Of a stretch of DNA of 64,000 nucleotides, positions 45,052-64,000 are shown piece after piece (position 1 is the stretch's first letter; each line of letters opens with the position of its first letter). The DNA is taken from assembly GCA_000092065.1 (NCBI GenBank), contig CP000588.1; one strand, given 5' to 3'. A program made the translations under genes and the position numbers. This DNA comes from Ostreococcus lucimarinus. Taxonomy: Eukaryota. The notes under the pieces were generated by a model. The model had not been told where the DNA came from. It made no database searches and saw nothing but the letters and a program-made list of their open reading frames with translations.

Positions 45052-45485
45052 GTCGATGGGTATCTAGTCGTCTCCGCGTCTGTGTGCGTCGTCGAGCGTC
45101 GTGCGTCGCGTGGATTCGCGAGGCGTAAAGTCTTCCGTGCGTTCGTGCGTGGCGCGTCGCGGAGGACGGTGCGCTGAAATGTGCCGCGCGCGCGCGCGCG
45201 AGCGATCGTCCCGCGAGGGCGCGATCGGAGCGTCGCAAAGCGTCACTACTGTTTACCCATACGACGCACGCGGATAACGTCGCGCCCTCACGACCCGCCC
45301 TAAACCCCAGCCCTAACCGTAACGCGCGATCCAGGTTTTCCCAGGGATGGAAAATTTAAATTTTCCAAATCCGAGGCGCGAGGCGCGACGCGACGCGCGC
45401 GTCGTCGTCGTCGTCGTCGTCCCACGCGTCGCCCGCGTGTGTCGTCGTCACCGCGCGTCGCGCGCGCGACAAACGATCCGTCGCG

Positions 45486-46496
45486 ATGCACCGCGCGTCC
45501 CGCGCGTCGTCCATCGACGACGACACCGCGCAAACGCTCGGGCTGCTGCAAGGACAGTTGCGCGCGCAGGCGCGAGAAATCAGTCGACTGCAGCGCGAGG
45601 TTGTCGATTTGCACCGCGAGCGCGACGTGCTGGCGGGTAAGGTGCTGAAACCTTTGAACGAGCGCTTCGGAGATTGCGTCAAGGACTTGATTCGCGAGAC
45701 GACGTGGTTCAAGCTGAAGGCGGTGGAGGAGACGATCGATGTGAACACGTACGAGAGCACGACGCGGGCGGCGTTTGACTTGGCGGGGGCGAGGAGCATG
45801 ATGGAGGCGAGATTTCCCGATTTGAAGAGCGCGAAGATCACGACGCGAGAGGATATCGGGGCGTTTGGGATTGAGTTCAAATCGCGACCGTTCAAGGGAG
45901 AGTTGATGCAGTTCAAGGCGAGATTGAACTTGGAAAAATTACTCAACGTGGCCAAGGCGCCGACGCTGGCGCTCGCGCCGTCGCCGCCGTTTCCTTGGAA
46001 CGGTAAGACGAAGTGGAATCCGGCGTTGGAATCGAAGATGGACATCGATGGGGTGTCGATTAACGCCAAGTACACCATGGTGCACGACTCGGTGAGCATG
46101 GACCATTTGGACTTTGACGTCAGCACGACGCACGAGGAGTACGGCGACTTGCGCGTGCAGAGAGTCAGTCAGCACACCGCGGCGGACGATCAGCTCGACA
46201 TCAAACCGGGAGGGTGCTGGCGCGCGGGCTGGGCGCAGCGTAAGGGTGATTTTGATTTAGCGGCAAACTTCATGACGGATAAAGGGGTAGAGTTGGAGTT
46301 GAGCGCCCGACGGCAGTTCGCCAAGCACTTTAGCGCCAAGGCGCTGACCCGCGTCGCCGCTCGCGAGATGGAATTCCAAGTCGGCTACGAGTTCACGGAA
46401 GAGCTCAAGGGATGGGAAGTCGTGGCTAAATCCGTGCTCACTACGCAAGGTTTGCAAAACCCGACATTCCAACTTAACCACGCGTGGGAGTTTTAA
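45486..46496 (+). CDS. hypothetical protein (N-terminal coiled coil; alternating hydrophobic C-terminal half ending in …AWEF)
   Basis: 336-aa ORF with no recognisable catalytic motif. The C-terminal strands and the terminal aromatic residue are compatible with a beta-barrel, but this is a weak indication. Confidence 0.4.
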   Translation: MHRASRASSIDDDTAQTLGLLQGQLRAQAREISRLQREVVDLHRERDVLAGKVLKPLNERFGDCVKDLIRETTWFKLKAVEETIDVNTYESTTRAAFDLAGARSMMEARFPDLKSAKITTREDIGAFGIEFKSRPFKGELMQFKARLNLEKLLNVAKAPTLALAPSPPFPWNGKTKWNPALESKMDIDGVSINAKYTMVHDSVSMDHLDFDVSTTHEEYGDLRVQRVSQHTAADDQLDIKPGGCWRAGWAQRKGDFDLAANFMTDKGVELELSARRQFAKHFSAKALTRVAAREMEFQVGYEFTEELKGWEVVAKSVLTTQGLQNPTFQLNHAWEF

Positions 46497-46539
46497 TACA
46501 TGTATCGCGCACTCGGTTTGTTACAAACAATAAATCTCG

Positions 46540-48075: not shown

Positions 48076-48296
48076 CGTCGCCTCGCGCGTCCCTTGGACG
48101 CACGCCCGCGCGAAGCGCAGGCGCAGGCGCGATGTGATTATGGTCAACGCGCGCGTCGAGCGCCGATGCCGCGCGACGCGCGAGCGCAAGACGTCGCGGC
48201 GTCGCGGTGTGAGACCGGCGAATAAAACCGACAAATCGCAACGCCTCCCGTCACACCGCCCACCGACCCCGAGCCGCTTTCGCGTCCCCGGCGGCG

Positions 48297-48300
48297 GTGA

Positions 48301-48338
<38 letters not shown>

Positions 48339-49550
48339 ATCGATCGCGTCGCCGCTTCGTCGTCGCGCGCGGCGAGTCGGAGACGTTCTTCGACTTCGAC
48401 ACCGAAAAGCGCGACAGCGCGCAGCCGGACGACGGTGCGACGCGCGACGACGAGCGATGACGACGTTGCGGACGACGCGTCGACGAGCGAGCGCGCGCGG
48501 GTCGAGCGATGGCGCGCGCGGGCGCGAACGATGCGGGCGAAAATACTGAAAGGATACTTGGCGAGGCTGGGCGCGCGGAGCGACGACTGCCTGGAGAAGG
48601 ACGAACTCGTCGATCGCTTGGCGGAAACGTGGATGACGAAGTGCGAAAATTTTGCAATCACGGTGCCACTGCGACAGCTCGGGAACATTGGTGGGAACCC
48701 ACGGTCGGGGTACGCGCTGGTGACGTTGGACGTCGGCGGCGACATCGGGTTGTGCGATTTCGTCATCGACACGGGCGCGACGACGGCGTTGATCACGCCC
48801 AAGGCGCTCGACATGTTGGACAAAGACCAAGTGAAAGAGGGCGCCGCGGTTCGGGGGTTGACCGGGACCGGGGAGACGTTGCGACAAAAAGTTTCCATCT
48901 CGGAGGTGCGGTTGGGGAGCAAGGAGTTCGTCCTCGACGCCGTCGTCACCGATTTAACCGCCGTCGGCTTGCCGGCGACGATCGGTGGTTTACTCGGTCT
49001 CGATTGGCTCGGAAACTTTGAGGTAGAGTTCGACTTTGAACAGTCGGTGATTACGTTTTGGCCGCCGGGCAGCGTGAAGAACGGCGCCGTGGCGGTCGAA
49101 GATCTCGTGCGCGTCCGGTTGAACCAGCATCCCGTGGGGTTGAAAACGGTGCGTTGTTCACTGAATGGCGCCGAGCTCGACGCCATCGTAGACATGGGTT
49201 CGTTCTTTAGCGTCGTGAATTGGATGGCGAGCACCACCGCAGGGATCGGTCCGGACTCTGACAAAGTCAAACGCGGCGGCTTGCAAGTCACGGGTGTCGA
49301 CGGCAAAAGCATGGCTATGGCGATGGCGCCGTACGATTTGCGCGTGCTCGGTGACGGCGAAGAAGATTTGACTTCCACCTACCAAGGAATGTGTTGCATC
49401 GGTGACTTACCCGCGTTCGCGGCGCTTGGTGCGAGCGTATCGCCATTCATGGCGTTGGGTCTCGACGTCATCGGGCGCGGTCGAATGGTCTTCAACGCCA
49501 AAGACAACGCGATGTACTTGTCTAAGGGCGACGTCACGTACGGTGTGTGA
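48297..49550 (+). CDS. retropepsin-like aspartic protease (single DTGA active-site motif) with SAP-like N-terminal segment
   Basis: 417-aa ORF. The N-terminal MMATTTTTTTTTTR is encoded by an (ACG)n run. The SAP-like segment is MRAKILKGYLARLGARSDDCLEKDELVDRLAE. The active-site motif is CDFVIDTGATTALITPKALD. Confidence 0.6.
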
Positions 49551-49605
49551 ACGAACACTTGACTACTAATGTTGGTACAAGTACTATTGTTATTAATCTT
49601 TCGCG

Positions 49606-50331
49606 CTACGTTGCAAGCAACGCCCGAACGGAGTCGTCGTCTTCGACCAAGTCCGACGGCGTCGCTCCGACGCTCGATTTTGCGCTCTTGTCCGCCCCGA
49701 GCTCGATCAAATATTTCACCACCTCCGCGTGTTCGCCGCGCGCGGCGTGATGTAACGGTGTTTCTTGGTCTTCGTCGACCTTCTTTAACAACGTCGCGAG
49801 CGTTCCCGCGTCTCGCGCGGCGTCACACAGCGCTCGCGCGACGTCGGCGTGCCCCGACGCGCACGCGTCGTGCAGCGGCGTCCCGAGCGATTCATCCGTC
49901 GCTAAAGGATCCGCGCCTCGACGCAACAACACCTCCACGTAAGCGACTTTGCCATACAGCGCGGCCAAGTGTAACGCTGTCTCTCCGTCGGCGTTCTTCG
50001 CGTTCGCCGGCTCGCCGTCGACCTCCAGCGCTCCCGCGAGCGTTTGCTCAAATGTCTCCGCGTCGAAATCGTCGCCGTCCTCGTCGCACGCGCGAAACAC
50101 GGCGCGCATGTGTTCGCTCATCGCACCGTCGTCGCCTCCGCCGTCGTCGTCGCCGTCCTCCAGGCGCAGCTGCTCGAGAATGCGTTTATATTCGTCGTCG
50201 CCGAGGTCGTCGTCGAGCGCCGCCGCGCCTTCCTCGCCCGCCATCGCGCGCAATCGCGCGCGCAGCGCCGCTTTCAACTCGCAAAGCCGCGCGAGCTCGT
50301 CGTCCTCGCCTTCGTCATCGTTCGCCGTCAT
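49606..50331 (-). CDS. ankyrin-repeat protein
   Basis: GETALHLAALYGKVAYVEVLLRRGADP, GTPLHDACASGHADVARAL and ETPLHHAARGEHAEVVKYLIELGAD are ankyrin repeats. ATG is at ~50331 (MTANDDEGEDDE). Confidence 0.6.
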   Translation of the reverse strand: MTANDDEGEDDELARLCELKAALRARLRAMAGEEGAAALDDDLGDDEYKRILEQLRLEDGDDDGGGDDGAMSEHMRAVFRACDEDGDDFDAETFEQTLAGALEVDGEPANAKNADGETALHLAALYGKVAYVEVLLRRGADPLATDESLGTPLHDACASGHADVARALCDAARDAGTLATLLKKVDEDQETPLHHAARGEHAEVVKYLIELGADKSAKSSVGATPSDLVEDDDSVRALLAT

Positions 50332-50387
50332 CGCGCGCGACTCGAACTGCCGACACAGCGTCACTCGCCGGCACGCTCGCGACGGCG

Positions 50388-51188
50388 ATGTCGTCCAACT
50401 TTGCGTTCGACGCCGCGGGAAAGGTTGTCGTCGTCACCGGTGGTGGTCGCGGCATCGGCGCGGGCATCGTCGACGCGTTCGCGCGACAACACGGCGCGAA
50501 GCGCGTGTACTCGGTGTCGAGGTCGACGGAGGACACCGTTTTGAAGCCTTCGACGGCGAGCGGGGGCGAGATCGTTGGCGTCTCGGCCGATTTGAGCACG
50601 CCCGATGGCGCGGCAAAAGTTGCGTCGACGATCGCCGCGCGCGGAGACGATCTCGTGCACGTGTTGGTGCATAACAGCGGCGCGAGTTGGGGAGCCGAGT
50701 TGGAAAGCCACGACGACAAAGGCTTCGTGAAGACGTACCAACTAAACGTCATGGGGACGTGGCGATTGACTGTTGCGCTCTTGCCCCATCTCATGAAAGC
50801 GGGCACACCGCAAGATCCCGCGCGCGTCATCGTCATAGGTTCCATAGCCGGCATCCGGCCGCAAAAGTATCCGACGTTTTCGTACGACGCGAGTAAAGCG
50901 GCTTTGCACCATCTGGCGCTCAAACTCGCGGACGAGTTCGCACGCAAGCGCGCTCTCGATATCACCGTGAATGTCGTCGCTCCTGGATACATACCCACCA
51001 AAATGAGCGCCGGTCTCACGAAATATGGTGAATCGAGCGACGACATCGTCGCCTCCAGCGTCCCGCTCCGCCGCGCGGGCGCGCCGGCGGACGTCGCGGG
51101 CGCCGTGGCGTTTCTCTCAAGCGACGCCGCGGCCTGGATCACGGGTGTGGTCTTGCCCGTCGACGGCGGTTTCCTCGCCAAGCTGTAG
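50388..51188 (+). CDS. short-chain dehydrogenase/reductase (SDR family)
   Basis: The motifs are VVVVTGGGRGIGAGI (TGxxxGxG), NSGAS (NNAG-like), the catalytic YDASKAA (YxxxK) and VNVVAPGYIPT. ATG is at 50388 (MSSNFAF). The gene shares a 56-bp promoter gap with the ankyrin gene. Confidence 0.8.
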   Translation: MSSNFAFDAAGKVVVVTGGGRGIGAGIVDAFARQHGAKRVYSVSRSTEDTVLKPSTASGGEIVGVSADLSTPDGAAKVASTIAARGDDLVHVLVHNSGASWGAELESHDDKGFVKTYQLNVMGTWRLTVALLPHLMKAGTPQDPARVIVIGSIAGIRPQKYPTFSYDASKAALHHLALKLADEFARKRALDITVNVVAPGYIPTKMSAGLTKYGESSDDIVASSVPLRRAGAPADVAGAVAFLSSDAAAWITGVVLPVDGGFLAKL

Positions 51189-51518
51189 AGCCGTAGTCCT
51201 CGCCTCCGGTCTCCGTCCGGGGTTGTACTCATACGTAGCGAATCCTTTGCCCGGCTCGCCCGACACCCGATTTCGATGCCCCGAGGCGATCGCGTCCGGT
51301 CGGCGTATCGCCGGCACTTTGGCACACACACCCGGTGTCGCGACGCGGTGACGTCGAGACACCGAACCGGTCCGGTCGCGCGCGTCGCGAACGCGATCGT
51401 CTTCTCGCGCGCGCGCGGTCGTCGCGGTCGCGCGCGCGACGACGACCGCGTCCGCGCGCGCGCGATCGATCGGTCGTAACCGTATCGCGGATACGATTCG
51501 AGGCGATTTCGTGGGACG

Positions 51519-52229
51519 ATGACGCGCGCGTCGACGCGTCGAAGCGCGAGCGCGGGAGAAGCGAGCGAAGACGCGAAGACAAAGATAATCGCGCGCGACG
51601 GCGAAGTTGAGGGTAAAGCGGACGCGGAACCGAGCGCGAAGGGTGGCGACGGCGACGACGAAGCGAAACAAGATGGAGGCGACGAGAGCGACGCGGACGA
51701 GCAGACATCGAGTGAGGAGACCGTGGAGGAGCTGGAAGCGCGCATGAAAACGACGAGTGACGAATCGTTACTGGGCGAGTTGCTCGCTATGGAGAAACAC
51801 GCGTTCGATCCCGTGAACAATTTGCTCAACCGCGCGCAGTTCGACGAGTTGCTCGATTTGCAGACGGATTCTGAGCCGACTTTTATGGAGGAAATCGTGG
51901 AGATGTATTGCGACGATTCGCAAACCATGCTGGACGAACTGAAAGAGATTTTGAACGATGAAGAAAAGAGAACGACGGAAGGTTTCGATACGGCGCGCGC
52001 AACCTTGCACAAGCTCCGCGGGGCGTCCTCGACGCTCGGCGCTGAGGGGATCCAACACACGTGCGAATCGCTCCGAGAGGCCATCGTGGCAGAAGCGCGG
52101 GACGCGCTGAGCAAAGGACCGGGGTCATTAGAAGAGCTCGAGAATCGCTTGAATGAGCTGAAAAACTTCCTTAAGAGGTACACGTGCATTGGTCGAGAGT
52201 GCGCCTCGCGCAAGCTCTCGCGCAAGTAG
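51519..52229 (+). CDS. histidine-containing phosphotransfer (HPt) domain protein with acidic N-terminal extension
   Basis: The HPt motif ATLHKLRGASSTLGAEGIQHTCESLRE (HKLKGSS-type) contains the phospho-accepting His. The N-terminal D/E-rich region is about 120 aa. Confidence 0.7.
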   Translation: MTRASTRRSASAGEASEDAKTKIIARDGEVEGKADAEPSAKGGDGDDEAKQDGGDESDADEQTSSEETVEELEARMKTTSDESLLGELLAMEKHAFDPVNNLLNRAQFDELLDLQTDSEPTFMEEIVEMYCDDSQTMLDELKEILNDEEKRTTEGFDTARATLHKLRGASSTLGAEGIQHTCESLREAIVAEARDALSKGPGSLEELENRLNELKNFLKRYTCIGRECASRKLSRK

Positions 52230-52409
52230 AGCCGACTGTAGGAAGCCACTTTTCATCCCTGTGTACATGTTATAATACAAGCTCTCGCGTTCGCTCTCGC
52301 CGTAAGTTGTCCTCATTAACGTGCACTAACGCGCCTAAACCGCCTGAAACCGCCTGATCCGCCTAAACTGCCTGAACCGCCTTATCCTTGAGCGTCGCCT
52401 CCATGTTCA

Positions 52410-54629
52410 TTAACGAAACGTCGGCGCCTGCGTAGAGGTCGCCGCTTCGAACACTATTCTCGGCGCAAGCTCTTTGAATGGATCGCTCTCGCGTTCGCGC
52501 AACAGATACTGTATACCGCCTTCAACTTCACCGTATACTCGCTCGTAAATCGCCTTGACGCGCTCTTCGTCATCCAAATCCGCTCCACTCACGTCAATAG
52601 GCGCCATGAAACGAAAGTAGAAGCGCTCAGGGGCTTTGGGTACGACGACAGGCTGGATGAATAACTCCTCTTCTCCCGCGTCCGCGGTGACGCGAGTGTC
52701 GACGGCGCGCGCCTTCGGAACGCTTTGCGAGCGTTTACGGACGGAATCGCCCACGATAGGGTTATTCATCAAGTCGTTGGCGTCGGCGACGATGTCGATG
52801 GAGTCCTCGGCGCCGATCGCCGCGAACGGGACGATTATCGCGTCGTGCTTGATTGCCATGCGAATGAACTCTGGCTTGGAAGGCCAAAAGAGTTTGTACT
52901 TTTCGTTTTTTCGTTTGAACGCTTCGCGAACGCCACCCGGAAAGAGCAACACGGCCTCGCCTTGTTTTAGTAGGCGAAACAACGCGAAGCCACTGACGGG
53001 CACGGCGCCGAAAGACGTGAATGATGACCCGCCGCCGACAATATTCATCGCGCGCCGCGGGGGCTTCGGCTCTCGACGCGGCAGTAACGGTTCCACGGGC
53101 GTGTTCTTCACAGCGTCACGAAGCGTATCTTCGAACGAGCGCGGTGCGTCTTCGCCGCCGAATCCATCGCCACCGCCTTCGCGCGACACCACAGGATGCG
53201 CCAAGCCGCGAAGGCAGACGTCGTATTCACGCAAGAATTCATCTACTAGAAATCCGAGATCCGGCGCCATCGTTTGGTGGTTCCCAACTAGCAAGATCGG
53301 TCGCGAACCACGTTGGCGTATTGGTACCGCGCTGAGACCGCGCACAATTTTCCCATCCGGTCGCGTGCTAAAAAACACCGGTGACGTCAGCGCTCGCAAA
53401 CCTGCGAGACTTTCGCGAGCGCGTTCGATGTCCGCCGGCGACGGTGGATCAAACTTTGCGTCACGCGTCATCACCGGCGCATCTGCACGCTTTGGAACGA
53501 ACCCATTTCGACGCGCGATGGTCATTACATTGACCCCCGGCTCCTGAAGTGCCGCGTGCGACGCACCTTTCAATACCTCGACTTTGGCGCGGGGCAAAAA
53601 CTTCCTGAGACGTTCGCTCTCGGCCAAACTCGGTATCAGATTATCGTTCTCACTTGCGATGACGAGCGTGGGCACGTCAATCGCTGTCAGCTTGGCGTAA
53701 TCATCGCTGTTCAAGTATTCACATCCCATGCGAAGGACTTTATCCAATCGATGTGCGAGCGTCTCGCGCGGGATGATTTCGGCCAGCGCGCCAAGCGCCG
53801 GTAGCAATCCGGCGAGCTCTTCCACCCCCGCCGCGATGGTTGTCAACGGATCGTCCGACACCGCGGACGACATGACTTTATCCATCATACCGCGTGCCAT
53901 GCGTACGGGATCGATCAGCACCGGCGTCAGCGCGTACGGCACGGCGCCCCACAATTCGCTCGGGACGTTCGGCAGCAACGGGCCGAGCGCCGGCCACGCG
54001 CTTCGATCGAACGAACTCGCGGGATTGACCAAAATCAAGCGCGTGATCAAATCTGGACGCTCACTTGCGACGCACAAAGACAGCATACCACCCATCGACT
54101 CTCCGATGAGATAGACGTCCTCGTTCTCACCGTTCGCGCGCGCCGCCGCGACGTGCGTGTCCAAGTAAGCCGTCGTCGCTTTCACTAAATCGAAAACGTC
54201 ACCACGATCGCCCGCGGGCACGTTCAGCGCGATGAGATTGAATTCATCGGCGATGTACTCAAACTGCGACGCCGCGCTGAATCCAGTGCCGTCTAATCCC
54301 GGCAAGTACACCGCTAACGGCGCGTCGCCGCGTCTCGCGCCGCCGCGCGTCACCAACGGACTGAACATCCTCGGCGGTCCATCGGCGCCGCGCAGGATCT
54401 CTCGCATCGTCACCCTTCGCGCGTCGGCGTCATCGCGCGCGTCTCCACGCCCCATGGACGACGCCAGACGCATGAACACATCGCTCGACGACGACGATGT
54501 CGACGACGATGTCGATGTCGATGTCGACGCGCGCGTCGTCGTCTTCGCGCGCGTCGACGTCTGGCTCGTCGCGCGCGCGCGCGTCGCGCGCGACGGTGGT
54601 GATGCCACCCCACGCATCGCGCTCGCCAT
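52410..54629 (-). CDS. phytyl-ester-synthase-like bifunctional protein: alpha/beta-hydrolase (esterase/lipase) domain + DGAT-type acyltransferase domain
   Basis: The internal ATG at ~54629 (MASAMRGVASPPS…) is followed by a Ser/Thr-rich transit-like region. The hydrolase domain has LAVYLPGLDGTG and the nucleophile elbow GESMGG. The acyltransferase part has PILLVGNHQ, LLFPGGVREA and IVPFAAIGAED. The architecture matches plant PES1/PES2. Confidence 0.7.
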   Translation of the reverse strand: MASAMRGVASPPSRATRARATSQTSTRAKTTTRASTSTSTSSSTSSSSSDVFMRLASSMGRGDARDDADARRVTMREILRGADGPPRMFSPLVTRGGARRGDAPLAVYLPGLDGTGFSAASQFEYIADEFNLIALNVPAGDRGDVFDLVKATTAYLDTHVAAARANGENEDVYLIGESMGGMLSLCVASERPDLITRLILVNPASSFDRSAWPALGPLLPNVPSELWGAVPYALTPVLIDPVRMARGMMDKVMSSAVSDDPLTTIAAGVEELAGLLPALGALAEIIPRETLAHRLDKVLRMGCEYLNSDDYAKLTAIDVPTLVIASENDNLIPSLAESERLRKFLPRAKVEVLKGASHAALQEPGVNVMTIARRNGFVPKRADAPVMTRDAKFDPPSPADIERARESLAGLRALTSPVFFSTRPDGKIVRGLSAVPIRQRGSRPILLVGNHQTMAPDLGFLVDEFLREYDVCLRGLAHPVVSREGGGDGFGGEDAPRSFEDTLRDAVKNTPVEPLLPRREPKPPRRAMNIVGGGSSFTSFGAVPVSGFALFRLLKQGEAVLLFPGGVREAFKRKNEKYKLFWPSKPEFIRMAIKHDAIIVPFAAIGAEDSIDIVADANDLMNNPIVGDSVRKRSQSVPKARAVDTRVTADAGEEELFIQPVVVPKAPERFYFRFMAPIDVSGADLDDEERVKAIYERVYGEVEGGIQYLLRERESDPFKELAPRIVFEAATSTQAPTFR

Positions 54630-54774
54630 CGTCGCCTCGCGCGTCGTCGCGCGCCTTCGAGTCGCCGTCGAGTTGTGGCGCGGCGTCGACGTCACGCCGC
54701 GGCCATCGCGATGGCGCTCGCGTCGTCCGTCGCGCGCGGCGGCACAGCGACGCGACGTGGGCGGCGTTCGATCG

Positions 54775-55725
54775 ATGTCGTCGAACGCGACGCGCGCCCT
54801 GCGCGGCACCGCGCGCGCGCGAACGGCGAACGCGCCGCGTCGACGCGCGTCGCGGCGGAGCGCGCGCGCGCCCGTCGCCGTCGCGGCGTCGCTTCGAGAC
54901 GCGAAAGTCGTCGTCGTCGGGGCGAACGGGAAGACTGGCAAGCGATGCGTGGAATATTTACGCGCCAACACCGAGGCGCGAGAGATCGTGGCGTGCACGA
55001 GAAGCGGGACGTACGACGGCGGGGCGTCGGACGAGCGCGTGCGCGGCGCCGAGGCAAACGTGGCCACGGCGAGCGTGGCGGAGCTGAGCAACGCGTTCTC
55101 GGGCGCGAAGGCGGTCGTGTTCGCGGCGTCGCAGTCGCAGAATGGAGGCGATGCATCGCGCGTCGATCGGGACGGTGTCATCACGTGCGCGCGCGCGTGC
55201 TTGCGCGCGGGCGTGGAAAGGTTCGTCATCGTCTCCTCGGGCGCGGTGTCAAAGCCGGCGTCGCCCGTGTACATCTTCCTCAACTTATTCGGCGGCATCA
55301 TGAGGAATAAGATTTTGGGCGAAGACGCCGTGCGCGCGCTTTATTTCGACCGGCCGGGGCAGTTTTACACCGTCGTGCGCCCGGGAGGTCTTTCGGAAGA
55401 CCCCGCGCGCGGCGTCGGCGCGCTCGAGCTCAACCAAGGCGACGAAATCTCCGGGCGCATCTCTCGCGAAGACGTCGCGGCGATTTGCATCGAGTCCATC
55501 ACTCGCGATGATGCAGCGAACGCGACGTTTGAATGTTACAACTCGGACGCGGCGAAGCCGCTCGGTGAGGTTGGATTGAGTAACATGATGAAGGCGACGT
55601 CTGCGGACGGCGACGTCGAGAAGACGGGAAAAGAACGACGCGGCGCGACGTGGGATGAAATCTTTGCCGATTTAGCCGCTGACGTCCCGGGGGCAAAGCA
55701 ACAAGGCGAGGGTTTCACGTTGTAA
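54775..55725 (+). CDS. NmrA-like / atypical SDR NAD(P)-binding Rossmann-fold protein
   Basis: ATG is at 54775 (MSSNATRAL…). A transit-like region precedes VVVVGANGKTGKRCVEY (GxxGxxG), followed by …VIVSSGAV…. The gene is divergent from the PES-like gene, about 145 bp apart. Confidence 0.6.
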   Translation: MSSNATRALRGTARARTANAPRRRASRRSARAPVAVAASLRDAKVVVVGANGKTGKRCVEYLRANTEAREIVACTRSGTYDGGASDERVRGAEANVATASVAELSNAFSGAKAVVFAASQSQNGGDASRVDRDGVITCARACLRAGVERFVIVSSGAVSKPASPVYIFLNLFGGIMRNKILGEDAVRALYFDRPGQFYTVVRPGGLSEDPARGVGALELNQGDEISGRISREDVAAICIESITRDDAANATFECYNSDAAKPLGEVGLSNMMKATSADGDVEKTGKERRGATWDEIFADLAADVPGAKQQGEGFTL

Positions 55726-55852
55726 CGTAATCACGCGTCTGAACAGCGCGCGACCACTCCTTTCACAATCGAACGTCGCCATCGCCGCCAACGTCGTTCG
55801 TGGCTCCCAAAAACCGAGGCCCCATTGAGACGCGCGCGCGCGTCCGCTCGCC

Positions 55853-57814
55853 ATGTCGCGCTCCAACGTGCGCACGCTGGTGCGAGAATTCGCGAAACAC
55901 GACGCCAGGTTCTCTACGACCGCGCGCGAAACCGCGGATGCGGCCGCACACGGCGCCGCGAACGCGGGCTCGACGTCATCGACGTCCGCGATCCGAGCTC
56001 TGGCCGCCACGACGTTTGCGGCGGTCGTGAGCGTGCCCACGGCCATGTGCGCGCCGTTCGGGTTGGGGGGGAAAAAGGAAAGCTCTCCACCGAGCGATCA
56101 AAAGTTTGAAAGCGAAATCAAGGCGTCGCGAAGCAATAAGAGTGGCGCCAACGCGGCGTTCGACCCCGAGGCTCTGGAGCGAGGCGCCAAGGCGCTCAGA
56201 GAAATCAACCAGTCCCCGTACGCGACGAAAGTGTTGGAGCTCTCGCGCACGCAAGAACAAACGAAACAAAGTGAACTTCGTGCGCGCGAGGCAGAGGCGG
56301 CGGCGGCGGCGGCGGCGCACGCCACGGAACGCGAAAAGGTGATGTGGAGTGAACAATCGCGCGTGGAGAAGGAGCGGTCGCAGCAACAGGCGCAGTTGAA
56401 GCAATACGACGACGAGCTTGCGAGAAAGAGAATGGCGACCGAGCACGAGCAGCGCAGGCAACGGAACGCGGAAATGGTCAAGCTGCAAGAAGAGGGCGTG
56501 GAAAGACAAGAGGCTATCAAGAGGGCGACGGAGGAGAAGATTCAGCGCGAACGCCGAGAGACCGAGCGGTACCGCGCCGAGCTTGAACGCGAAAACTTGC
56601 GAGCGAAGGCAATCGCAGAAGCCGAAGGTCGCATCGCGGAGAACAGAAAGAATGAAGACGTGATTCGTCGACAGATGATTGCCAAAGTGACGGCGGAGAC
56701 GGACAAGGCCGTGAAGCTCGTCAACGAGACGCTCGGCTTGATCGGCGGCGGATTCAACTCCATCCTCGGCGACCGCGACCGCATGATGATGTTCGTCGGA
56801 AGCGCCACCGCACTCGCCGCGGGCGTGTATGCATCGCGTGAGGGCGCTCGATTCGGCTTTAGGCAACTCGAAAAGTACATCGGACAGCCTTCTTTGATTC
56901 GCGAGACATCTCGCGGGTCGTTTTGGAAGCCTAAACCAGCAGCTGCCGCGTCCACTGCGGCGGCTCCGGCGCAAGCGAACGGAATATTGGGCGACGTCGT
57001 CCTCGGAAACAAGCTGCAAGAGCGCGTGCAACGTTTGGCGGTGTCGACGGCGAACACGAAGAAGCACTCAGCGCCGTTTCGAAACATCCTCTTCCACGGC
57101 CCTCCGGGTACGGGCAAGACGATGGCGGCCAAACGTCTCGCTCGGTACAGCGGCTTGGACTACGCGGTGATGACGGGCGGTGATGTTGCTCCCCTCGGCG
57201 CTAACGCCGTGACGAAGCTCCACGAAATGTTTGACTGGGCGTCCACCAGTCGTAAAGGTTTGCTCTTGTTCATCGACGAAGCCGACGCCTTCTTGGCGAA
57301 ACGGGGGAGTGACGTCGCCGGTACGGAATCTCGCGCCGCGCTCAACGCGCTGTTGTACCGCACTGGTGAGATGAACCGCGACGTGGCTTTGGTTTTAGCG
57401 ACGAATCGACCGGAGGATTTGGACAAAGCGGTCCTTGACCGCATGGACGAGTCCGTTGAAATCGGCTTGCCGGATCTCGAAGCGCGAAAGCGAATGGTGA
57501 AATTATATTTCGACAAGCTCATCGTCCGAGGTGCGGACGCCGGCGACGATAAACCTGCGAAATCTTTCTTCGGCGGCTTGTTCCGCAGAAGCCTTCCCGA
57601 GCGCCCCATCGAGGTGAAGGATGTCACTGACGCCGACCTGGACGCCGGCGCGGCAAAGACGGAAGGTCTCAGCGGTCGTGAAATTTCAAAGCTCATGGCG
57701 AGCGTTCAAGCGGCGGCGCACGGATCGTCCGACGGCGCGTGCACGAAAGCCATGCTCGAGGAAGTCACGACGACGAAGCTTGCAGAGAACAAGACGAAAG
57801 CGAAGTGGGGGTAA
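55853..57814 (+). CDS. ATAD3: ATAD3-like mitochondrial AAA+ ATPase (N-terminal coiled coil, TM, C-terminal AAA domain)
   Basis: 653-aa ORF. The coiled coil (EQTKQSELRAREAEAAAA…) precedes a TM-like segment MMMFVGSATALAAGVYA. The AAA domain has Walker A ILFHGPPGTGKTMAAKRLA, Walker B LLFIDEADAFL and the SRH segment ATNRPEDLDKAVLDRMD. Confidence 0.85.
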   Translation: MSRSNVRTLVREFAKHDARFSTTARETADAAAHGAANAGSTSSTSAIRALAATTFAAVVSVPTAMCAPFGLGGKKESSPPSDQKFESEIKASRSNKSGANAAFDPEALERGAKALREINQSPYATKVLELSRTQEQTKQSELRAREAEAAAAAAAHATEREKVMWSEQSRVEKERSQQQAQLKQYDDELARKRMATEHEQRRQRNAEMVKLQEEGVERQEAIKRATEEKIQRERRETERYRAELERENLRAKAIAEAEGRIAENRKNEDVIRRQMIAKVTAETDKAVKLVNETLGLIGGGFNSILGDRDRMMMFVGSATALAAGVYASREGARFGFRQLEKYIGQPSLIRETSRGSFWKPKPAAAASTAAAPAQANGILGDVVLGNKLQERVQRLAVSTANTKKHSAPFRNILFHGPPGTGKTMAAKRLARYSGLDYAVMTGGDVAPLGANAVTKLHEMFDWASTSRKGLLLFIDEADAFLAKRGSDVAGTESRAALNALLYRTGEMNRDVALVLATNRPEDLDKAVLDRMDESVEIGLPDLEARKRMVKLYFDKLIVRGADAGDDKPAKSFFGGLFRRSLPERPIEVKDVTDADLDAGAAKTEGLSGREISKLMASVQAAAHGSSDGACTKAMLEEVTTTKLAENKTKAKWG

Positions 57815-57890
57815 ATAACTTCTTAGCGAGATCTAGGGAAATTTAGCGGTAAACCGTATTGAGTACTCATCACTATGTGCGGTGCAAGAA

Positions 57891-58796
57891 TCACTCCGAC
57901 GTAGCGTGAATAATATCGCTCCCGTCCGCGTTGCATCGCTTCAGTAGTCGCCCAAACTCGGGATGCAGCGTCAGCATCCATCCCGCGACGCCGTCCTCGC
58001 GCAGCTCGATCCAATCCCCGCGGCGCGCGCGCGCGCGAACTAGTCGATCCTCGTGCATTCGACCGATGATTTCGGATTTCACCGACGCCGATGCTCGCAC
58101 GGGAACGAACGGTCCGTGCGCAACGCGATACAAGTATCCTTCGTTCCTGAGCGGAAGCGCGGTGTGGTCGACGTCGATCACCGCTTCGGCGCTCGCCAGA
58201 CGCATCGTCGTCGGCGGCAGTTCGCACCCGCTCGCGTGTTCGAGTAGAGTTCCGTGCTCGGGATGATTTGTCAGCATCCATCCCGCGCTACCGTTCACGT
58301 TTTCGCCGCTCGCGTCGTCTCCCGCGAGTTCAAGCCACCCATCGCTCGTGAGCGACACGCCGAGTACGCGCGCGCTCGGCGCCGCGAAGCCCAACACGGC
58401 GCTATCGATGTGCGGCTGCGCTCGCACGGGTACGGGACGTGAATACACCACCGCGTACCACGCGACGAGTTTACCGCGCTCGAGTCTATTGACACGCAAG
58501 TGCCACGTCCCTTCGTGTCCCGCGAGCGCCGCTTCAATCCTTCCCACATCATCACTCCCAGCTCGCTCCGCCGTCGACGTCGTCGTCGTCGTTTCTCCGC
58601 GCGCGCCCGGGACGACGACGACGTCGCGCACGGCGTCTATTTCCCGCGTCAATCCTTCGACGTCCAGCGCCACCATCGTCACACCCACGCGATCGACAGT
58701 GCGCGCCGAACGATTTCGCCTCGAAAAAACGCCTTCGGAAACGCTCGCCGCGGCGACGCGTCGTGTGCGCGTTGTAACACCTTCCACCTTCCTCAT
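57891..58796 (-). CDS. hypothetical protein with two internal ~100-aa repeats (…GWMLTNHPEHGTLLE / …GWMLTLHPEFGRLLKR)
   Basis: Track ORF 57891–58952. The likely start is an internal Met (~58796, MRKVEG…), which avoids overlap with the next gene's ATG at 58861. The repeat pattern Y.V…VR..S…G…W.EL……GWML..HPE.G.LL occurs twice. Confidence 0.35.
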   Translation of the reverse strand: MRKVEGVTTRTRRVAAASVSEGVFSRRNRSARTVDRVGVTMVALDVEGLTREIDAVRDVVVVPGARGETTTTTSTAERAGSDDVGRIEAALAGHEGTWHLRVNRLERGKLVAWYAVVYSRPVPVRAQPHIDSAVLGFAAPSARVLGVSLTSDGWLELAGDDASGENVNGSAGWMLTNHPEHGTLLEHASGCELPPTTMRLASAEAVIDVDHTALPLRNEGYLYRVAHGPFVPVRASASVKSEIIGRMHEDRLVRARARRGDWIELREDGVAGWMLTLHPEFGRLLKRCNADGSDIIHATSE

Positions 58797-58860
58797 CGGA
58801 CCGCGCGCGATGGGCGAGCGCGCGAGCGCGCGAGTTCGGCGACGACGACACGCGTGGACG

Positions 58861-59925
58861 ATGAAGAGCGCAATCGCGTGCGTCGGCGCGTGCGCGTCGA
58901 TCGCCGCGCTCGCGCGCGGTGCGGACGCGCGCGCGCATCGAGCCGACAACAACGGCGCGAAGATTTTATACGCCCACGCACCGGCGAGCGAATCGTTCGA
59001 ACGCGACGTCGAACGCTTGCGGTGCTACGCCGCGGTGGCGAAGGCGAGTGGGCGAACGCTGGTGCTCGTGGACGCGGACGCGGAGGCGGCGCGCGGTGAA
59101 CGGCGAGACCGCCGGCGACCGGCGACGGACTACGTGGTACCAGCAGCGAACGGAGGGCTCGCGCCGTGGCGACGCTGGCGCGAAGGAGACGATAAACGCG
59201 CGAAGAGTGGGAACGTGCGATGGTGCGCGCAAGTCGAGCACGGGACGACGATGGAGGCGTCGCGAGCTGTTGAAGAGCGATTTCGCGGCGCGCGCGCGGC
59301 GTGCGTAGCGTTTCAAACCGTCGATAGAAGTTGTGGTGCGGATGACGTGGACATGGTATTGACGTCGAAAGTAGACTTCATGGCGACTTTGCCGAGGGAG
59401 TTAGAAGGTCTGGTCAAGTCTGGAGTGGTGCGCGAAAGCGTCCTGGCGCCAGCGTTGGGGGGAGCGTCCGCGGCGCAGTCGCGGCTAGCGATCGTCGAAG
59501 AACGAATCGCCGAGCGCGTGGCGGCGCGCATAGAAGAGCGTCACCAAACACATTCGCACATCCATGCAGACCAGGATGTCAACCACACCGCACTGCTCGC
59601 TGCGAGCGAGCCAGAGGCCCAGAACGGCGACAAAGCTGCGACGCAAGGAATTCCCGAGTCAAAGGTCTTGACGACTGCGGCGCGGCGCACGAACGGTTCA
59701 GGTCGCAAGATTGATACCTCGCGCGCGCTCGTTCTGTTCGCGGCAGCGGTCGGGGTCGTGGGATTCTTCGTGAATAGTTTTGGGTTCGCTAAACAGGCAT
59801 CAAAGCGGGACGAGCTCGCCGCGCTCATGCTCGACCCGTCGGCTTCTTTCGGCGCGTCGCGCAAGAAAAAAGTAGTTCAGAAAGAAGAAGCGTCACCGGA
59901 AGTCGCAGTGGCGGTTGAGAGTTAG
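58861..59925 (+). CDS. hypothetical secretory-pathway protein (signal peptide + C-terminal TM)
   Basis: ATG at 58861 gives MKSAIACVGACASIAALARGADA, which looks like a signal peptide. The C-terminal TM is ALVLFAAAVGVVGFFVNSF. The earlier part of track ORF 58348–59925 is low-complexity. Confidence 0.4.
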   Translation: MKSAIACVGACASIAALARGADARAHRADNNGAKILYAHAPASESFERDVERLRCYAAVAKASGRTLVLVDADAEAARGERRDRRRPATDYVVPAANGGLAPWRRWREGDDKRAKSGNVRWCAQVEHGTTMEASRAVEERFRGARAACVAFQTVDRSCGADDVDMVLTSKVDFMATLPRELEGLVKSGVVRESVLAPALGGASAAQSRLAIVEERIAERVAARIEERHQTHSHIHADQDVNHTALLAASEPEAQNGDKAATQGIPESKVLTTAARRTNGSGRKIDTSRALVLFAAAVGVVGFFVNSFGFAKQASKRDELAALMLDPSASFGASRKKKVVQKEEASPEVAVAVES

Positions 59926-60073
59926 AGATTAGCACATAGAACATTTAGGTACACCTTGCGCCAACCAACGTCACCTATAAATCCTGCTGTTTGTTTTCGC
60001 TTCTGTGCTTTTGCAACGTCTACTCTATTTTCCTACGCGATTTCATATGCTGACTACTCATCTACGGTATGAC

Positions 60074-61221
60074 TCACCAACGTCTCTGCGTGCCACTGCC
60101 ACCGCCGCTCCAACCGCCTCTGCCTCTTCCGCCTCCGCCGCTATACTTTGCGTACTTTGACGTTCTGCCACCGCCGCCGCGCCAGCTACCACCTGAACCG
60201 ATGCTGAACGTCTGAGGCGCGCGCGAAAAGTCCAACGATGTTCCTGGACCGCCGCGCGTGTTGTTCTTACTCGGACATTCGCGAGCGATGTGACCGCGTT
60301 GGCCGCAATGAAAACACGCAAAATCAGGTGCGGCACCACCACCGAAGCCTCGCCTCGAGTGCGCGCACGCAGTATCGAGATGGCCGTCGCCGCCGCATCG
60401 ACAGCAACTCGGTAGTCCAGGAGGTAAAGAGTCTTGCGGCGCGCAGCAAAGGTGTCCCTTGGACCCACACACGTAACAGTGAATCTGCGCAAGATCGCTC
60501 GCGTCGAATCTGTACACGCAATCAGCGACCACGTGACCGGATTTTCCACACCTCAGACAACATCGCTCTTGAGCGTCTCGGCCGGAACCACGCGCGTACG
60601 GACAGTCGCGGCTCTGGTGCCCTGGGGTGAGACAGTTGAAACACAAGCCGTGTGGACAGTCGCGCGCGATGTGAGATTTGTATCCGCACAAATGACACGC
60701 TTTCTTCTTCGCCGGAAGCTCGCACTCGGCCTCGCGATGCCCACCTTGACCGCAGCGGAAGCAACGCAGCGCCGCAGCTTCGTAATCATCGTCAAAGTAC
60801 CGCGGTTGCCGTAATATGTTGCGCACCTCCTCATTTTCCTGGTCGTCCGCCGTCGTCGCCGCCTCACCATAATCGCTCTGCGGTTTCGCGTCTTTCGCCT
60901 CGCCGTCGCTTCCTCGCGCAATTTCCCCGTCTTCAGTAACATCGTCGTTCGCCTTCTTCGTCTTCTTCATCTTCTTCGCCGTCTCGCTCGCGCGCGGCTT
61001 CTCAAGCGTGGGAGACATATCCTCGGTCGCTTGCGTCGTCGTCGTCGCGCCTGCCGTCGTCGTCGTCGCTCTCTTTTTCGGTCGTTTCGCCTTTTTCACC
61101 GTCGTGCGCTTGACGTCCGTCGCGCCAGCGCCGTCGTCGCGTCGCGGCCCGTCGTCGTCGTCCCCGATCGACTTTCGCTTCTTCTTCCCCGCCTGTCCCA
61201 TCGTGTCGAAAGCCGAGCCGA
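60074..61221 (-). CDS. CCHC zinc-knuckle protein (about 7 knuckles, CNBP/Air1-Air2-like) with K-rich N-terminus and RGG C-terminus
   Basis: ATG is at ~61221 (MGQAGKKKRKS). The knuckles are CFRCGQGGHREAEC, CHLCGYKSHIARDC, CFNCLTPGHQSRDC, CLRCGKSGHVVADC, CYVCGSKGHLC, CCRCGGDGHLDTAC and CFHCGQRGHIAREC. The protein ends in a GGRGRGGWSGGG tail. Confidence 0.75.
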
Positions 61222-61338
61222 ACGACGCGGTGGTCGCCCCGTCGGCGTGTGAAGGCAAGAGCGCGAACGAGCGCGAACGAGTGCGAACCCGCATACGACG
61301 ACGGGGCGACCGCGTGCACGCCGACTGACGCGAAAGCG

Positions 61339-61339
61339 A

Positions 61340-61381
<42 letters not shown>

Positions 61382-63396
61382 ACGATGCGTGGGCGGTCGA
61401 CGCCCACCTCGCCGCGTTCCATCGCGCGCTGCTGCCGGCCGACTGGTTCGCGAGCGGCGGCGGCGGTGCGAATACGACGGCGACGAGGTCGATGACGCAG
61501 GTCCCGTTGCGATTCGACAACGCACGAGAGTACGTGCGAACGTACGCCCCGTTCGTGCTCGCTGAGTGCGACGAACACGTGCGCAGACGAAGCGGCGAGG
61601 GGACGAGCGTGAAGGCGGAAGCGGCGCGCGCGGCGGAGCGGGACGAAGAGTTTCACGTCGTCGCGTTCGACGTGAGCGAAACCGATTCGGAACGACTCTC
61701 GGATAACGATTTAGTGCTACTGAGCAAGGAAGAGTTGACCGCGAAGGTGACGGAGGACGCGAGGTTGACGCACGCGCTCGCCGTCGTCGATGGCCGCGAA
61801 ATGAAAACTCGAGTGCGCCTTCGACTATACCTCCCAGATACAACAATGACGACGGAAGCGCGAGTGCATAGTGAGAGCGATTACAAGCGGTTTCGCACCG
61901 TTCGCAACGCGCTCACCGCGGTGAAGGGCGAGCGTTGGTTCCTGAAGAGTTTGGCAAACTTGTCCACGTTCACGCGCGAGTGGCTAGCGATTCACGCCTT
62001 TCCAGCGTTCCCCTACGCGGCGACGATTCTTAACGGCACTCCCGCGGCGGGCATCGGCGGTCCGTCTTCCGTCAACGCGTGGAGTATGCCCGACGGCTTG
62101 AAAACTTTCGTCGAGCGCTCTTGCAACGATTCGCAAATCAAGGCGTTAGAGAGCGCGTTAACGCGAGAGCCCTTGGTGCTCGTTCAAGGTGCTCCGGGGA
62201 CTGGGAAGACGCGCACGATCATTCCTCTGCTGTCCGTGCTGTTGCACTCCGTTCCGAGCACGTCTTCGAGGACGATCGTTGATTTTAAGGCGTACGCCAA
62301 GATGCGAGAGGCGCGCGTGGTAGCCACAGCTGAGGAGAAGCGCGAAGCTTGGATGCGCGCTTCGCCATGGTTGCGGACAACTAATCCGCGCGACGCACCA
62401 CCGCCACCGACGCTCGTGGCGGAGAAAGTGAGCGGATCGGTAAACGCCGAATCGAATGTGTCTCCGTCTTCCAAGCCGTCGAGCAATGGCGCCGTGAGAG
62501 TCGTCGCGCAAACATTGGGCGCCGACGCCTACAGACGATCAAAGATTCTCGTGTGTGCGCCGTCGAACGAGATTTTAGATGAAATCGTGTCGCTTATCAT
62601 CAAGACCGGTCTCGTCGACGGTAATGGCGAGACGTACTCACCGACTGTCGTCCGCGTTGGCGTAAACGTACACGACTCGGTGCGACAAGTCAGCATGGAT
62701 GCACTCGTTTCACAACGATTAGGAGAGTTGGGCGCACACGTTGATTCGGTGCGCAAATTCGAAGCGGCCGTCGAACGCGACAGGTTGAAACAGGCAATTT
62801 TGGACGAAGCGAACGTGGTGTGTAGTACGCTTTCATTTAGCGGCGCGGGTATGTTCGCCAGGATGTCTACGCCGTTCGACGCCGTCATAATCGACGAGGC
62901 TACGCTAGCGGTCGAGCCTTCAACGCTTGTACCGCTGTGCTACGGGGCGAAGCAAGTGTACTTGATCGGTGACGACCGAGAACTGGCTGCGACTGTCCTG
63001 AGCTCAGCCGCCGTCGAGTACAAGTACGACGTGTCCATGTTCAGCCGATTCCGTAAGTGCGATTATCCCGTGCACTCGCTCACTGCGGATAAGACGACAG
63101 GTAAGCGGAAATCAACGACGGCGTCTGAAAAGAAGCGCCACATGCACGATCCTCATTGGAGCGGCGCGGCGGAGTTTATTCGCACGAATGAGCTCAACAC
63201 CGCCGACGGAGGGTTCTCAAAAGAAGGTTTCCGTGACGAATTGATCGTAGAAAACACGAAGAAGGGTGAAGCCGTCGGTGGTGATGAAATGCTCGCGGAC
63301 GTCGAAGACGGCGACGATTCGAATCGCGACGCTTTCACCGACTCGCCGGACGAACCAGCGAAAAAGAAACAGACACGACGGTCGACGCGAGCGTAG
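61339..63396 (+). CDS. SF1 (UPF1/Sen1-like, AAA_11/AAA_12) helicase homolog lacking recognisable C-terminal motifs IV–VI, ~460 bp from the telomere
   Basis: ATG at 61339 gives MATTTTTTTTTTTTH, encoded by an (ACG)n run. The motifs are motif I LVLVQGAPGTGKTRTI, motif Ia ILVCAPSNEILDEI and motif II FDAVIIDEATLA, followed by QVYLIGDDRELAA. After DVSMFSRFRKCDYPVH the sequence no longer matches the RecA2 motifs (QYRMHP→KRHMHDPH, and there is no motif V or VI). The protein ends in an acidic/K-rich tail. Confidence 0.65.
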
Positions 63397-63862
63397 ATAT
63401 AGCAAATCGAAATAAATCAACGTGAAAAATTTTCGCGCAACGCACGCGATTCCTGCGTCGTCGTTCCCGCGACGAGGCACGCTCGGAAACACGCGCCGAA
63501 CAGTGCCATTTCTCGAGCGTTTTTTAGGGGTTTTCTCGTTTGTGTGATGTGACATTTTTTCCATTATTTTCACAGAGGACAAACTACGACTGGTCGTTTG
63601 TCGTCCAACACGAACACTGCAGAAGGAACTTTGACGCAAGAGTCCGGCGACGTCCGGCGCGTCGAGGGGGAAGTCTGCGGTGCCGTGCTGGTCGCCGAGT
63701 GATGGCCGTAGGGTGTCGTGCAGGTGCACAGGAAGGATGCGAATGCTAGTGACTTTTCGGGTTTTAGTACGACGCAGAGAACCTAGGGTTGGGTGTAATA
63801 AATGACTTAGCTAGTCGGTCGGTTACGGCACTTCTCCCGAAGCGCCTACCGAGACTCATGCG

Positions 63863-64000
63863 TAGGGTTTAGGGTTTAGGGTTTAGGGTTTAGGGTTTAG
63901 GGTTTAGGGTTTAGGGTTTAGGGTTTAGGGTTTAGGGTTTAGGGTTTAGGGTTTAGGGTTTAGGGTTTAGGGTTTAGGGTTTAGGGTTTAGGGTTTAGGG
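63863..64000 (+). repeat. telomere: about 19.7 copies of TTTAGGG running to the window end (G-strand 5'→3' toward the terminus, so this is a right chromosome end)
   Basis: Perfect heptamer periodicity is visible from ~63863 to 64000. Degenerate telomere-like fragments (ttttaggggtttt at ~63524, ctagggttggg at ~63783) lie in the 460-bp subtelomere. Confidence 0.95.

Follow-up and report, generated by a model that had tools for sequence, protein, structure and literature searches.

The last gene before the telomere in a 64,000-nucleotide stretch of Ostreococcus lucimarinus DNA (NCBI GenBank assembly GCA_000092065.1, contig CP000588.1; the whole stretch is referred to as the window) encodes a relative of the UPF1/Sen1-class superfamily 1 (SF1) helicases that appears to have kept only the first (RecA1) of their two RecA domains, raising the question of whether it is a decaying duplicate, a telomere-associated paralogue, or a gene retained in another capacity. 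The evidence makes it probable that this gene is the single-copy, syntenic orthologue of the MAA3/Sen1-type helicase, that its second RecA domain (RecA2) was deleted in frame, and that the shortened protein has been kept by selection, most likely as a non-catalytic nucleic-acid-binding or adaptor derivative.

The open reading frame (ORF) occupies positions 61339-63396 on the plus strand and encodes 685 amino acids (aa) plus a stop codon at 63394-63396; as a preliminary description of this DNA had noted, it is the last gene ahead of the telomeric tract, which contains 19 perfect TTTAGGG repeats. In a Pfam search, the 685-aa protein matched AAA_11 with E=7e-48, up to profile position 256/257, and gave no match to AAA_12 at E<=1. 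A phmmer search against the PDB returned yeast Sen1 (5mzn, 1e-40) followed by fungal SETX and UPF1, with all alignments ending near aa 577. The parts of the gene are as follows.

61339-62103, plus strand: N-terminal accessory region (brace helix, 1B beta-barrel and stalk helices), aa 1-255, delimited by AlphaFold2 (AF2), Pfam and Foldseek.
62104-63087, plus strand: RecA1 with the 1C prong, aa 256-583, including a disordered insertion at aa 354-397, delimited by Pfam AAA_11, alignment and AF2.
62188-62211, plus strand: motif I (Walker A), GAPGTGKT, with the G, K and T kept and the family-invariant PP changed to AP.
62554-62589, plus strand: motif Ia, CAPSNEILDEIV, compared with CAPSNSALDEIV in the family.
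62893-62907, plus strand: motif II (Walker B), DEATL, with the D and E kept and the invariant AQ changed to TL (TR in the related protein P0002).
62968-62997, plus strand: degenerate motif III, GDDRELAATV, compared with the invariant GDPxQLPATV.
63088-63138, plus strand: 17-aa basic linker, DKTTGKRKSTTASEKKR, which is the deletion junction in the alignment and stands in place of about 335 residues.
63139-63393, plus strand: conserved C-terminal tail, predicted to be disordered (tblastn, dN/dS and AF2).

The predicted structure agrees with this layout. An AF2 run with a 58-sequence alignment gave a mean predicted local distance difference test score (pLDDT) of 77, with values above 90 over most of aa 20-580, and the model comprises a brace helix, a beta-barrel, stalk helices and RecA1 with the prong; the insertion at aa 354-397 and the tail at aa 589-685 (tail pLDDT <50) are disordered except for a short helix at aa 609-616. 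The top Foldseek matches were Sen1 (5mzn, 1.8e-29) and SETX, at a TM-score of only about 0.5 because the RecA2 of the targets is unmatched. Pfam adds a weak match to SEN1_barrel (PF23576) at aa 104-172 (E=0.0015). Therefore, the AF2 model and Foldseek place in this protein the 1B beta-barrel, the 1C prong and stalk and the N-terminal brace of the SF1B Sen1/SETX/MAA3 branch, together with the RecA1 that the branch requires, albeit with a degenerate motif II Q and motif III, whereas the equally required RecA2 with motifs IV, V and VI is missing; the structure-based check, like the sequence profiles, found none of these three motifs. The gene thus belongs to the Sen1/SETX/MAA3 family by descent, yet it is not a two-domain helicase. 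The preliminary description had assigned it to the UPF1/Sen1 class with intact motifs I, Ia and II, which holds for the class, for motifs I and Ia and for the DE pair of motif II, but not for the motif II Q, which is replaced by L; the altered motif III had gone unmentioned there.

In full-length orthologues, about 335 residues carrying motifs IV-VI and a C-terminal extension lie between the end of RecA1 (…YPVHSLTA) and the tail, whereas in the window protein this place is taken by 17 basic residues (junction …HSLTADKTTGKRK…HMHDPHW). Matches obtained by tblastn with the O. tauri-type full-length protein were confined to aa 96-636 and aa 901-986, and tblastn with the O. tauri RecA2 found no remnant of the domain in any frame of the 64-kb window (best E=0.55). 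In the alignment, the RecA2 columns are also empty in P0002, which has the identical junction and a 17-aa linker of equal length. RecA2 of the window protein is therefore absent, motifs IV-VI included, rather than degenerate as first described, and it was one in-frame deletion of about 1 kb (about 335 codons) that took away RecA2 together with the C-terminal extension. The shared junction and equal linker in P0002 indicate that this deletion had already happened in an ancestor common to O. lucimarinus and one or more sister lineages. A hidden intron (GT at about 63100) and RecA2 remnants further downstream were considered and ruled out, with the ORF being continuous and the tblastn hits mere noise.

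A collapse of RecA2-coding DNA during sequencing or assembly has a practically negligible probability, as the same 685-aa ORF recurs in the NCBI CCE9901 gene model, in four or more metagenome contigs obtained independently from different samples, and in a cluster of 136 members, and the diverged lineage of P0002 shows the same junction. The window protein is 100% identical over aa 52-685 to XP_001419251.1/ABO97544.1, a 'predicted protein' of O. lucimarinus CCE9901, and a neighbouring gene matches XP_001419247.1; the database label of the helicase-like gene is 'predicted protein / DNA2/NAM7 helicase domain-containing'. The XP_001419251.1 model begins at Met52 (61492), and the 51 in-frame codons upstream of it (61339-61491) encode the N-terminal motif HLxxxHRxxLxxDxF, which is kept in all aligned orthologues, so the annotated start is probably 51 codons too far downstream.

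Where the lost domain went bears on whether the gene was split, with RecA2 relocated and the two halves reassembling in trans as an active helicase. The retention of the Walker A and Walker B residues in both RecA2-less lineages would suit such an arrangement, since ATP binding could still matter. However, when an alignment of Ostreococcus-type RecA2 domains was scanned against the JGI metagenomes, in which O. lucimarinus-type contigs occur, none of the 80 loci recovered was an orphan RecA2, every locus at >=45% identity being a contiguous full-length gene of another lineage, and none was found in the window. A protein search for a stand-alone RecA2 with the O. tauri domain returned only fragments of <=470 aa with a best identity of 61%, a weak negative because the full-length source protein itself was not returned. 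In addition, the elements through which RecA1 is coupled to RecA2, namely motif III and the motif II Q, show decay that differs between the two lineages. We regard a split gene as very unlikely, and loss of RecA2 is much more likely than fission, given the lack of an orphan RecA2 in both the metagenome scan and the protein search.

The relatives of the window protein fall into tiers. The closest is the O. lucimarinus cluster of 136 members; the second is P0002 (713 aa, AAA_11 only), with 68% identity by BLASTP and 72% in the alignment; and the third consists of P0003-P0009, full-length proteins of about 960-1000 aa with AAA_11 and AAA_12 and 50-55% identity, of which the P0004 cluster includes O. 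tauri CEG01636.1 and OUS47162.1. Next after these Ostreococcus-type proteins come plant proteins named 'helicase MAGATAMA 3', at about 39% identity. Among the protein relatives, the interval between 68% and 100% identity held no second cluster of O. lucimarinus type. In a neighbour-joining tree of the RecA1 columns, the window protein and P0002 group together with 100% bootstrap support inside the Ostreococcus-type clade. The weaker metagenome loci L052-L086 were considered as candidates for a second Sen1-like paralogue in Ostreococcus and set aside; most have a GC content of 36-52% or 67-71% and unrelated architectures.

Gene order points in the same direction as the phylogeny. In two metagenome contigs, L003 (O. 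tauri-type, 42 kb) and L004 (a second lineage, 39 kb), the full-length gene lies inside the contig among genes for u424, u510, Asp_protease, SDR, Hpt, CCHC, u359, SH3-like, NAD_binding_10 and Abhydrolase/DAGAT proteins, and counterparts of all of these are present at 45.4-61.3 kb of the window with 42-86% identity. Parts of this set of neighbours also occur, in an order that varies, at twenty further metagenome loci from three other full-length lineages. The window contains no counterpart of the SSF transporter, Fuseless, CBS and WD40 genes found on the O. tauri-type contig. The full-length orthologues thus share the neighbours of the window gene inside long contigs, which argues for an orthologue rather than a subtelomeric paralogue. 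Phylogeny and synteny together identify the window gene as the single-copy syntenic orthologue of the green-lineage Sen1-like SF1B helicase (MAGATAMA 3; O. tauri CEG01636.1). The suggestion that it might be a duplicate or paralogue does not survive this comparison, given the neighbourhood shared with single full-length orthologues in contigs of 39-42 kb.

The nearest of these neighbours is divergent from the helicase gene.

60074-61294, minus strand: CCHC zinc-knuckle gene with 7 knuckles and a Gly/Arg-rich C-terminus.

The start codons of the CCHC and helicase genes lie head-to-head, 44-137 bp apart, and the O. tauri-type, P0008/9-type and P0002 lineages show the same pairing. An arrangement of this kind would be compatible with a common promoter and perhaps with a common pathway, in which the zinc-knuckle protein would be a putative RNA-binding partner. 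Antisense ORFs in this GC-rich DNA can mislead gene callers: one lies at 60238-60630 on the plus strand of the window, opposite the CCHC gene. The gene called 'u234' in L004 (8411-9115) matches that opposite strand, so strand calls in such contigs cannot be trusted for the orientation of syntenic genes. Across window positions 45400-63400, the comparison with L003, L004 and L007-L029 shows the helicase flanked in every Ostreococcus-type lineage by the Hpt, SDR, CCHC, u359, SH3-like, NAD_binding_10 and Abhydrolase/DAGAT genes, in differing orders and orientations, which marks this part of the chromosome end as a hot spot of rearrangement.

A gene that is the last before a telomere, has lost several invariant motif residues and varies within the species at five nonsynonymous but only two synonymous codons could be a decaying pseudogene, or a truncated duplicate left by terminal deletion and telomere healing. 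The 3' end, however, is not truncated, because the tail is present and 80% identical to aa 901-986 of the O. tauri-type protein by tblastn; a telomeric truncation of the gene was ruled out on the grounds that this tail is homologous to the C-terminus of full-length orthologues. The gene is also syntenic rather than duplicated, and a lineage at dS of about 0.9 has the equal architecture. Decay was further addressed with the ratio of nonsynonymous to synonymous substitution rates (dN/dS), calculated by the Nei-Gojobori method between the window gene and L002, the two RecA2-less genes, with the pair L003/L004 for full-length comparison. The ratio for the RecA2-less pair, rough as an absolute value, was 0.20 overall (dS 0.90) and fell from 0.40 in the N-terminus through 0.14 in RecA1 to 0.046 in the tail; 263 synonymous differences at 500 sites stood against 245 nonsynonymous differences at 1534 sites (Fisher p=1e-55). 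The full-length pair gave 0.26 overall, with 0.53, 0.18 and 0.06 for the same three parts, so that constraint follows the order tail > RecA1 > N-terminus in both pairs. When the ORF was evolved neutrally in simulation, 2 of 500 replicates were free of stop codons at 0.1 substitutions per site and none of 500 at >=0.2, making survival of the ORF at the observed divergence impossible under neutrality.

Because the deletion is shared, all divergence between the window gene and L002 arose after it, and the RecA2-less protein has thus been maintained by purifying selection since the deletion. The four O. lucimarinus alleles are all intact, with two indels, both in frame. Decay, one of the two fates first proposed for this gene, is therefore contradicted, and we consider a pseudogene or truncated duplicate highly improbable. 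The two indels are found at an (ACG)n Thr run in the N-terminus (61345-61380), whose length differs between CCE9901 and three wild alleles, and after aa 345 (WLR-TTNPRD, about 62373), where CCE9901 lacks a Gly codon that is present in the wild alleles and in all orthologues.

Selection has nevertheless not acted evenly on the helicase motifs. About 91 truly aligned columns reach >=95% identity in a set of 56 full-length homologues; each RecA2-less protein departs from about 13 of them, compared with 0-5 for each full-length orthologue. The changed columns cluster in motifs I, Ia, II and III: in motif I, PP has given way to AP (window protein) or AS (P0002), motif Ia is changed at A412, E415 and R419, and motif III at P546, Q548, L549, P550 and T552. 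Walker A G/K/T and Walker B D/E are unchanged in both lineages. Elsewhere the replacements often differ between the window protein and P0002, suggesting that the residues coupled to RecA2 (motif III and the motif II Q) were released from constraint. With descent from an enzyme, loss of the catalytic apparatus and purifying selection, the gene has the attributes of a pseudoenzyme, for which loss of activity would be the predicted state.

The most constrained part of the protein is its tail. The last 85 residues (HMHDPHWSGAAEFIR…GFSKEGFRDELIVENTKKGEAVGG…DVEDGDDSNRDAFT…KKKQTRRSTRA) are homologous to the last 85 of full-length proteins and follow the pattern HxHDPHWSGAAEFIR...GFSKxGFRDELI...DVEDGDD..RDxFT...KKK..RR..RA. 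The charged tail at which the protein was first said to end is thus real, yet as an ending it is not new, since full-length members of the family have this same conserved tail at their C-terminus. A phmmer search of this segment against 1.84 billion representatives returned eight proteins, all family members or their fragments, and the distant full-length relatives P0038, P0044, P0079 and P0085 have a recognisable version, HVHxPEW…GF…DEL…D(P/A)(Y/F)AQ. The tail is therefore a lineage-specific, predicted-disordered and highly constrained module with a basic end resembling a nuclear localization signal. The Nrd1-interaction motif (NIM) of Sen1 has the consensus (D/H/N)xYx(P/L) with acidic residues ahead of it (10.1101/492736). 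The tail does not match this consensus, having an acidic run followed by RDAFTD, with F instead of Y and D at +2; the corresponding stretch of more distant relatives reads DPYAQ or DAFAQ. We take the likeness between the acidic-aromatic stretch and the Sen1 NIM as a resemblance that offers a lead only.

The DNA beyond the gene consists of two features.

63397-63862, no strand: 466-bp subtelomeric spacer of unique sequence, containing a single perfect TTTAGGG (63523) and some degenerate telomere-like fragments.
63863-64000, plus strand: telomere, beginning with TAGGG at 63863 and continuing as 19 perfect TTTAGGG repeats (63868-64000), whose G-rich strand points outward to the end of the chromosome.

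TTTAGGG occurs 22 times in the window compared with 1.3 copies expected by chance, and the direction of the G-rich strand is the one expected at a true right chromosome end. The distance from the stop codon to the telomere, given earlier as about 460 bp, measures 467-471 bp, and the telomere-like fragments reported in the subtelomere are those of the spacer. Two wild metagenome contigs, L005 and L006, are 99.3-99.7% identical to the window over 12 kb, have its gene order and end just after the helicase gene, with L005 ending at the first telomeric bases, next to sequencing adapter; this equal order and ending indicate that the chromosome end is real. The spacer (63397-63862) varies between these contigs, with TTTTTAGGGTTTTGGGTTTTGGGG in L006, GATTTAGGGTGG in L005 and another sequence in the window, which suggests repeated telomere erosion and healing or recombination within the spacer.

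A different arrangement is found in the contig L001, recovered from three samples. It matches window positions 58945-63414 at 99.7% identity and then continues with window positions 52259→50664 in reverse, so that the 3' end of the helicase gene faces Hpt across a short hairpin (CTTTTCATCCC/GGGATGAAAAG, L001 positions 4470-4495). L001 differs from the window, L005 and L006 by one terminal inversion of about 11 kb (52260-63414), a structural polymorphism among wild O. lucimarinus populations, and just one inversion of two genes separates its order from the O. tauri-type order. The L001 order is probably ancestral. Because it is nearer to the O. tauri order, parsimony suggests that the RecA2-less gene was first non-terminal and reached its telomeric site secondarily. 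Adjacency to the telomere would thus be a by-product of local rearrangement and not part of the function of the gene.

These arrangements bear on the possibility that the gene belongs to a telomere-associated family with copies at several chromosome ends. Y'-Help1 of yeast and Tlh1/2 of Schizosaccharomyces pombe are subtelomeric helicase families, and the window gene resembles them in position, as a helicase-related ORF ahead of a telomere, 467 bp away across a spacer with telomere-like fragments, with L005 and L006 confirming the telomeric location in wild populations. In contrast to these families, it is single-copy and syntenic, it lies outside any subtelomeric repeat and it is an SF1B Sen1-type protein, a helicase class other than that of the Y' and Tlh proteins. 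Multiple near-identical copies at several ends were not found; there is one cluster with the same neighbours on all contigs, the other CCE9901 ends not having been read directly. Nor is the gene embedded in a repeat without non-terminal orthologues, as no long repeats were found around it in the window, its orthologues lie inside contigs of 39-42 kb in relatives, and L001 joins it to Hpt, not to the telomere. Membership of such a family has only the slightest probability, and the proposal of a telomere-associated, Y'-like paralogue fails on the finding that had been named as decisive, namely internal single-copy orthologues in relatives and no paralogues, within the same limit on the other CCE9901 ends. 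What stands of the early interpretation is the non-catalytic nature of the protein, as would follow from the absence of RecA2.

In SF1 helicases, the ATP-binding cleft lies between RecA1 and RecA2, the arginine finger of RecA2 motif VI is required for hydrolysis, and translocation depends on both domains gripping in alternation. ATP-dependent 5'-3' translocation or unwinding is not expected of the window protein, which lacks the RecA2 motifs and with them the motif VI arginine finger. The protein descends from a two-domain Sen1/MAA3-type helicase from which RecA2 was excised cleanly, leaving RecA1 joined by the short basic linker to the disordered tail of the family. Without RecA2, the ATPase cleft could not close and no translocation would occur, leaving a non-motor protein whose brace, barrel, prong and RecA1 surface may bind RNA or single-stranded DNA statically. 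The retained P-loop and DE residues possibly bind a nucleotide or possibly serve only the stability of the fold. The tail may provide partner binding and nuclear targeting, so that partners bound to it would be brought to nucleic acid. O. lucimarinus and its sister lineage might even lack any catalytically competent MAA3/Sen1-type helicase, their sole orthologue serving purely as a scaffold that binds nucleotide or RNA and recruits partners through its tail; we put this forward as a tentative proposal, more doubtful than not.

Alternatively, the RecA2-less protein may be a regulatory or dominant-negative partner that modulates or competes with another active Sen1/UPF1-like helicase encoded elsewhere, through RNA or protein partners shared via RecA1 and the tail. 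The strong conservation of the tail and RecA1 shows that binding functions persist, the search of the O. lucimarinus genome covered the 64-kb window, and catalytically dead helicase relatives serving as complex subunits are known from work on pseudohelicases. Against this, the gene occupies the ancestral orthologous locus, no second MAA3-type cluster attributable to O. lucimarinus was found among the protein matches, and the tail is limited to the family, so that no other protein would share its partners. We judge a role of this kind unlikely, if less so than the other alternatives.

Several points weigh against a selected, RecA2-deleted orthologue with a binding or adaptor role. The case is drawn from sequence, synteny and predicted structure, and the binding and adaptor roles are read from conservation. 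Elsewhere in the O. lucimarinus genome there may be another Sen1-like helicase or a remote gene encoding RecA2 alone, the searches having covered the window, the metagenomes and the protein clusters. P0002 is known from a single 2.5-kb contig in one sample. Synonymous sites are near saturation (proportion of synonymous differences, pS, 0.52-0.68), which makes absolute dN/dS values rough. The variable codons within O. lucimarinus (seven, with the 5:2 ratio given above) are too few for a pN/pS ratio and are not as strong present-day constraint predicts. Finally, the RecA1 branch of the deleted pair is modestly longer than those of full-length proteins (root-to-tip 0.59-0.65 vs 0.47-0.535), which fits partial relaxation.

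The closest comparison is with the O. tauri orthologue (CEG01636.1/XP_022841075.1, 973 aa; OUS47162.1, 'tRNA-splicing endonuclease positive effector-related'), which shares the neighbourhood and the head-to-head CCHC gene and is 55% identical to the window protein over the N-terminus and RecA1, in addition to the likeness of the tail, but retains AAA_12/RecA2 intact, motifs IV-VI included, and is canonical in its motifs II and III. The best named family is that of Arabidopsis MAA3, reportedly a plant Sen1-like helicase, with about 39% identity over about 78% of the query (E~1e-99) and a shared N-terminal brace, barrel and RecA1; plant MAA3 proteins differ in being full two-RecA helicases without the HxHxPxW...GFxKDGFRDEL tail. 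The closest solved structures are the cores of yeast Sen1 and of fungal and human SETX (PDB 5mzn, 8ftm and 8ram), whose brace, barrel, prong and RecA1 match the window protein, whereas their RecA2 has no counterpart in it and the Sen1 NIM none in its RDAFTD stretch. The pseudohelicases Utp25 (PMC9539457) and Deinococcus PriA (PMC4504706) are likewise helicase-derived proteins that have lost catalytic capacity and yet been retained, but as described they keep the scaffold and lose motifs, while in the window protein a whole RecA domain is excised, and the protein arose recently, within one genus, from an orthologue that is otherwise active. Our literature search found no paper mentioning XP_001419251.1 or a RecA2-less Sen1-type gene. 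What is new here is that a Sen1-type helicase orthologue without RecA2 has been kept under selection while a sister species has the intact enzyme, pseudohelicases and domain loss as such being already known.

In summary, domain-based annotation would miscount this gene as a helicase, and its position could falsely imply a telomere function. Sen1/senataxin-type helicases terminate transcription and resolve R-loops, and mutations in human SETX cause neurodegeneration; how much of this biology is due to motor activity and how much to scaffolding is a question that the RecA2-less orthologue could help to address. O. tauri is genetically tractable, and with the full enzyme in O. tauri and the RecA2-less gene in O. 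lucimarinus at the same locus, the two species offer a comparative system for separating helicase-dependent from helicase-independent functions, one that is also suited to finding the binding partners of the highly constrained tail. The interest would be greater if the window gene were the only Sen1-type gene of the genome. If O. lucimarinus and its sister lineage indeed lack a competent MAA3/Sen1-type helicase, the gene would be a natural separation-of-function allele, and the selected role of the family in Ostreococcus would be independent of helicase activity.

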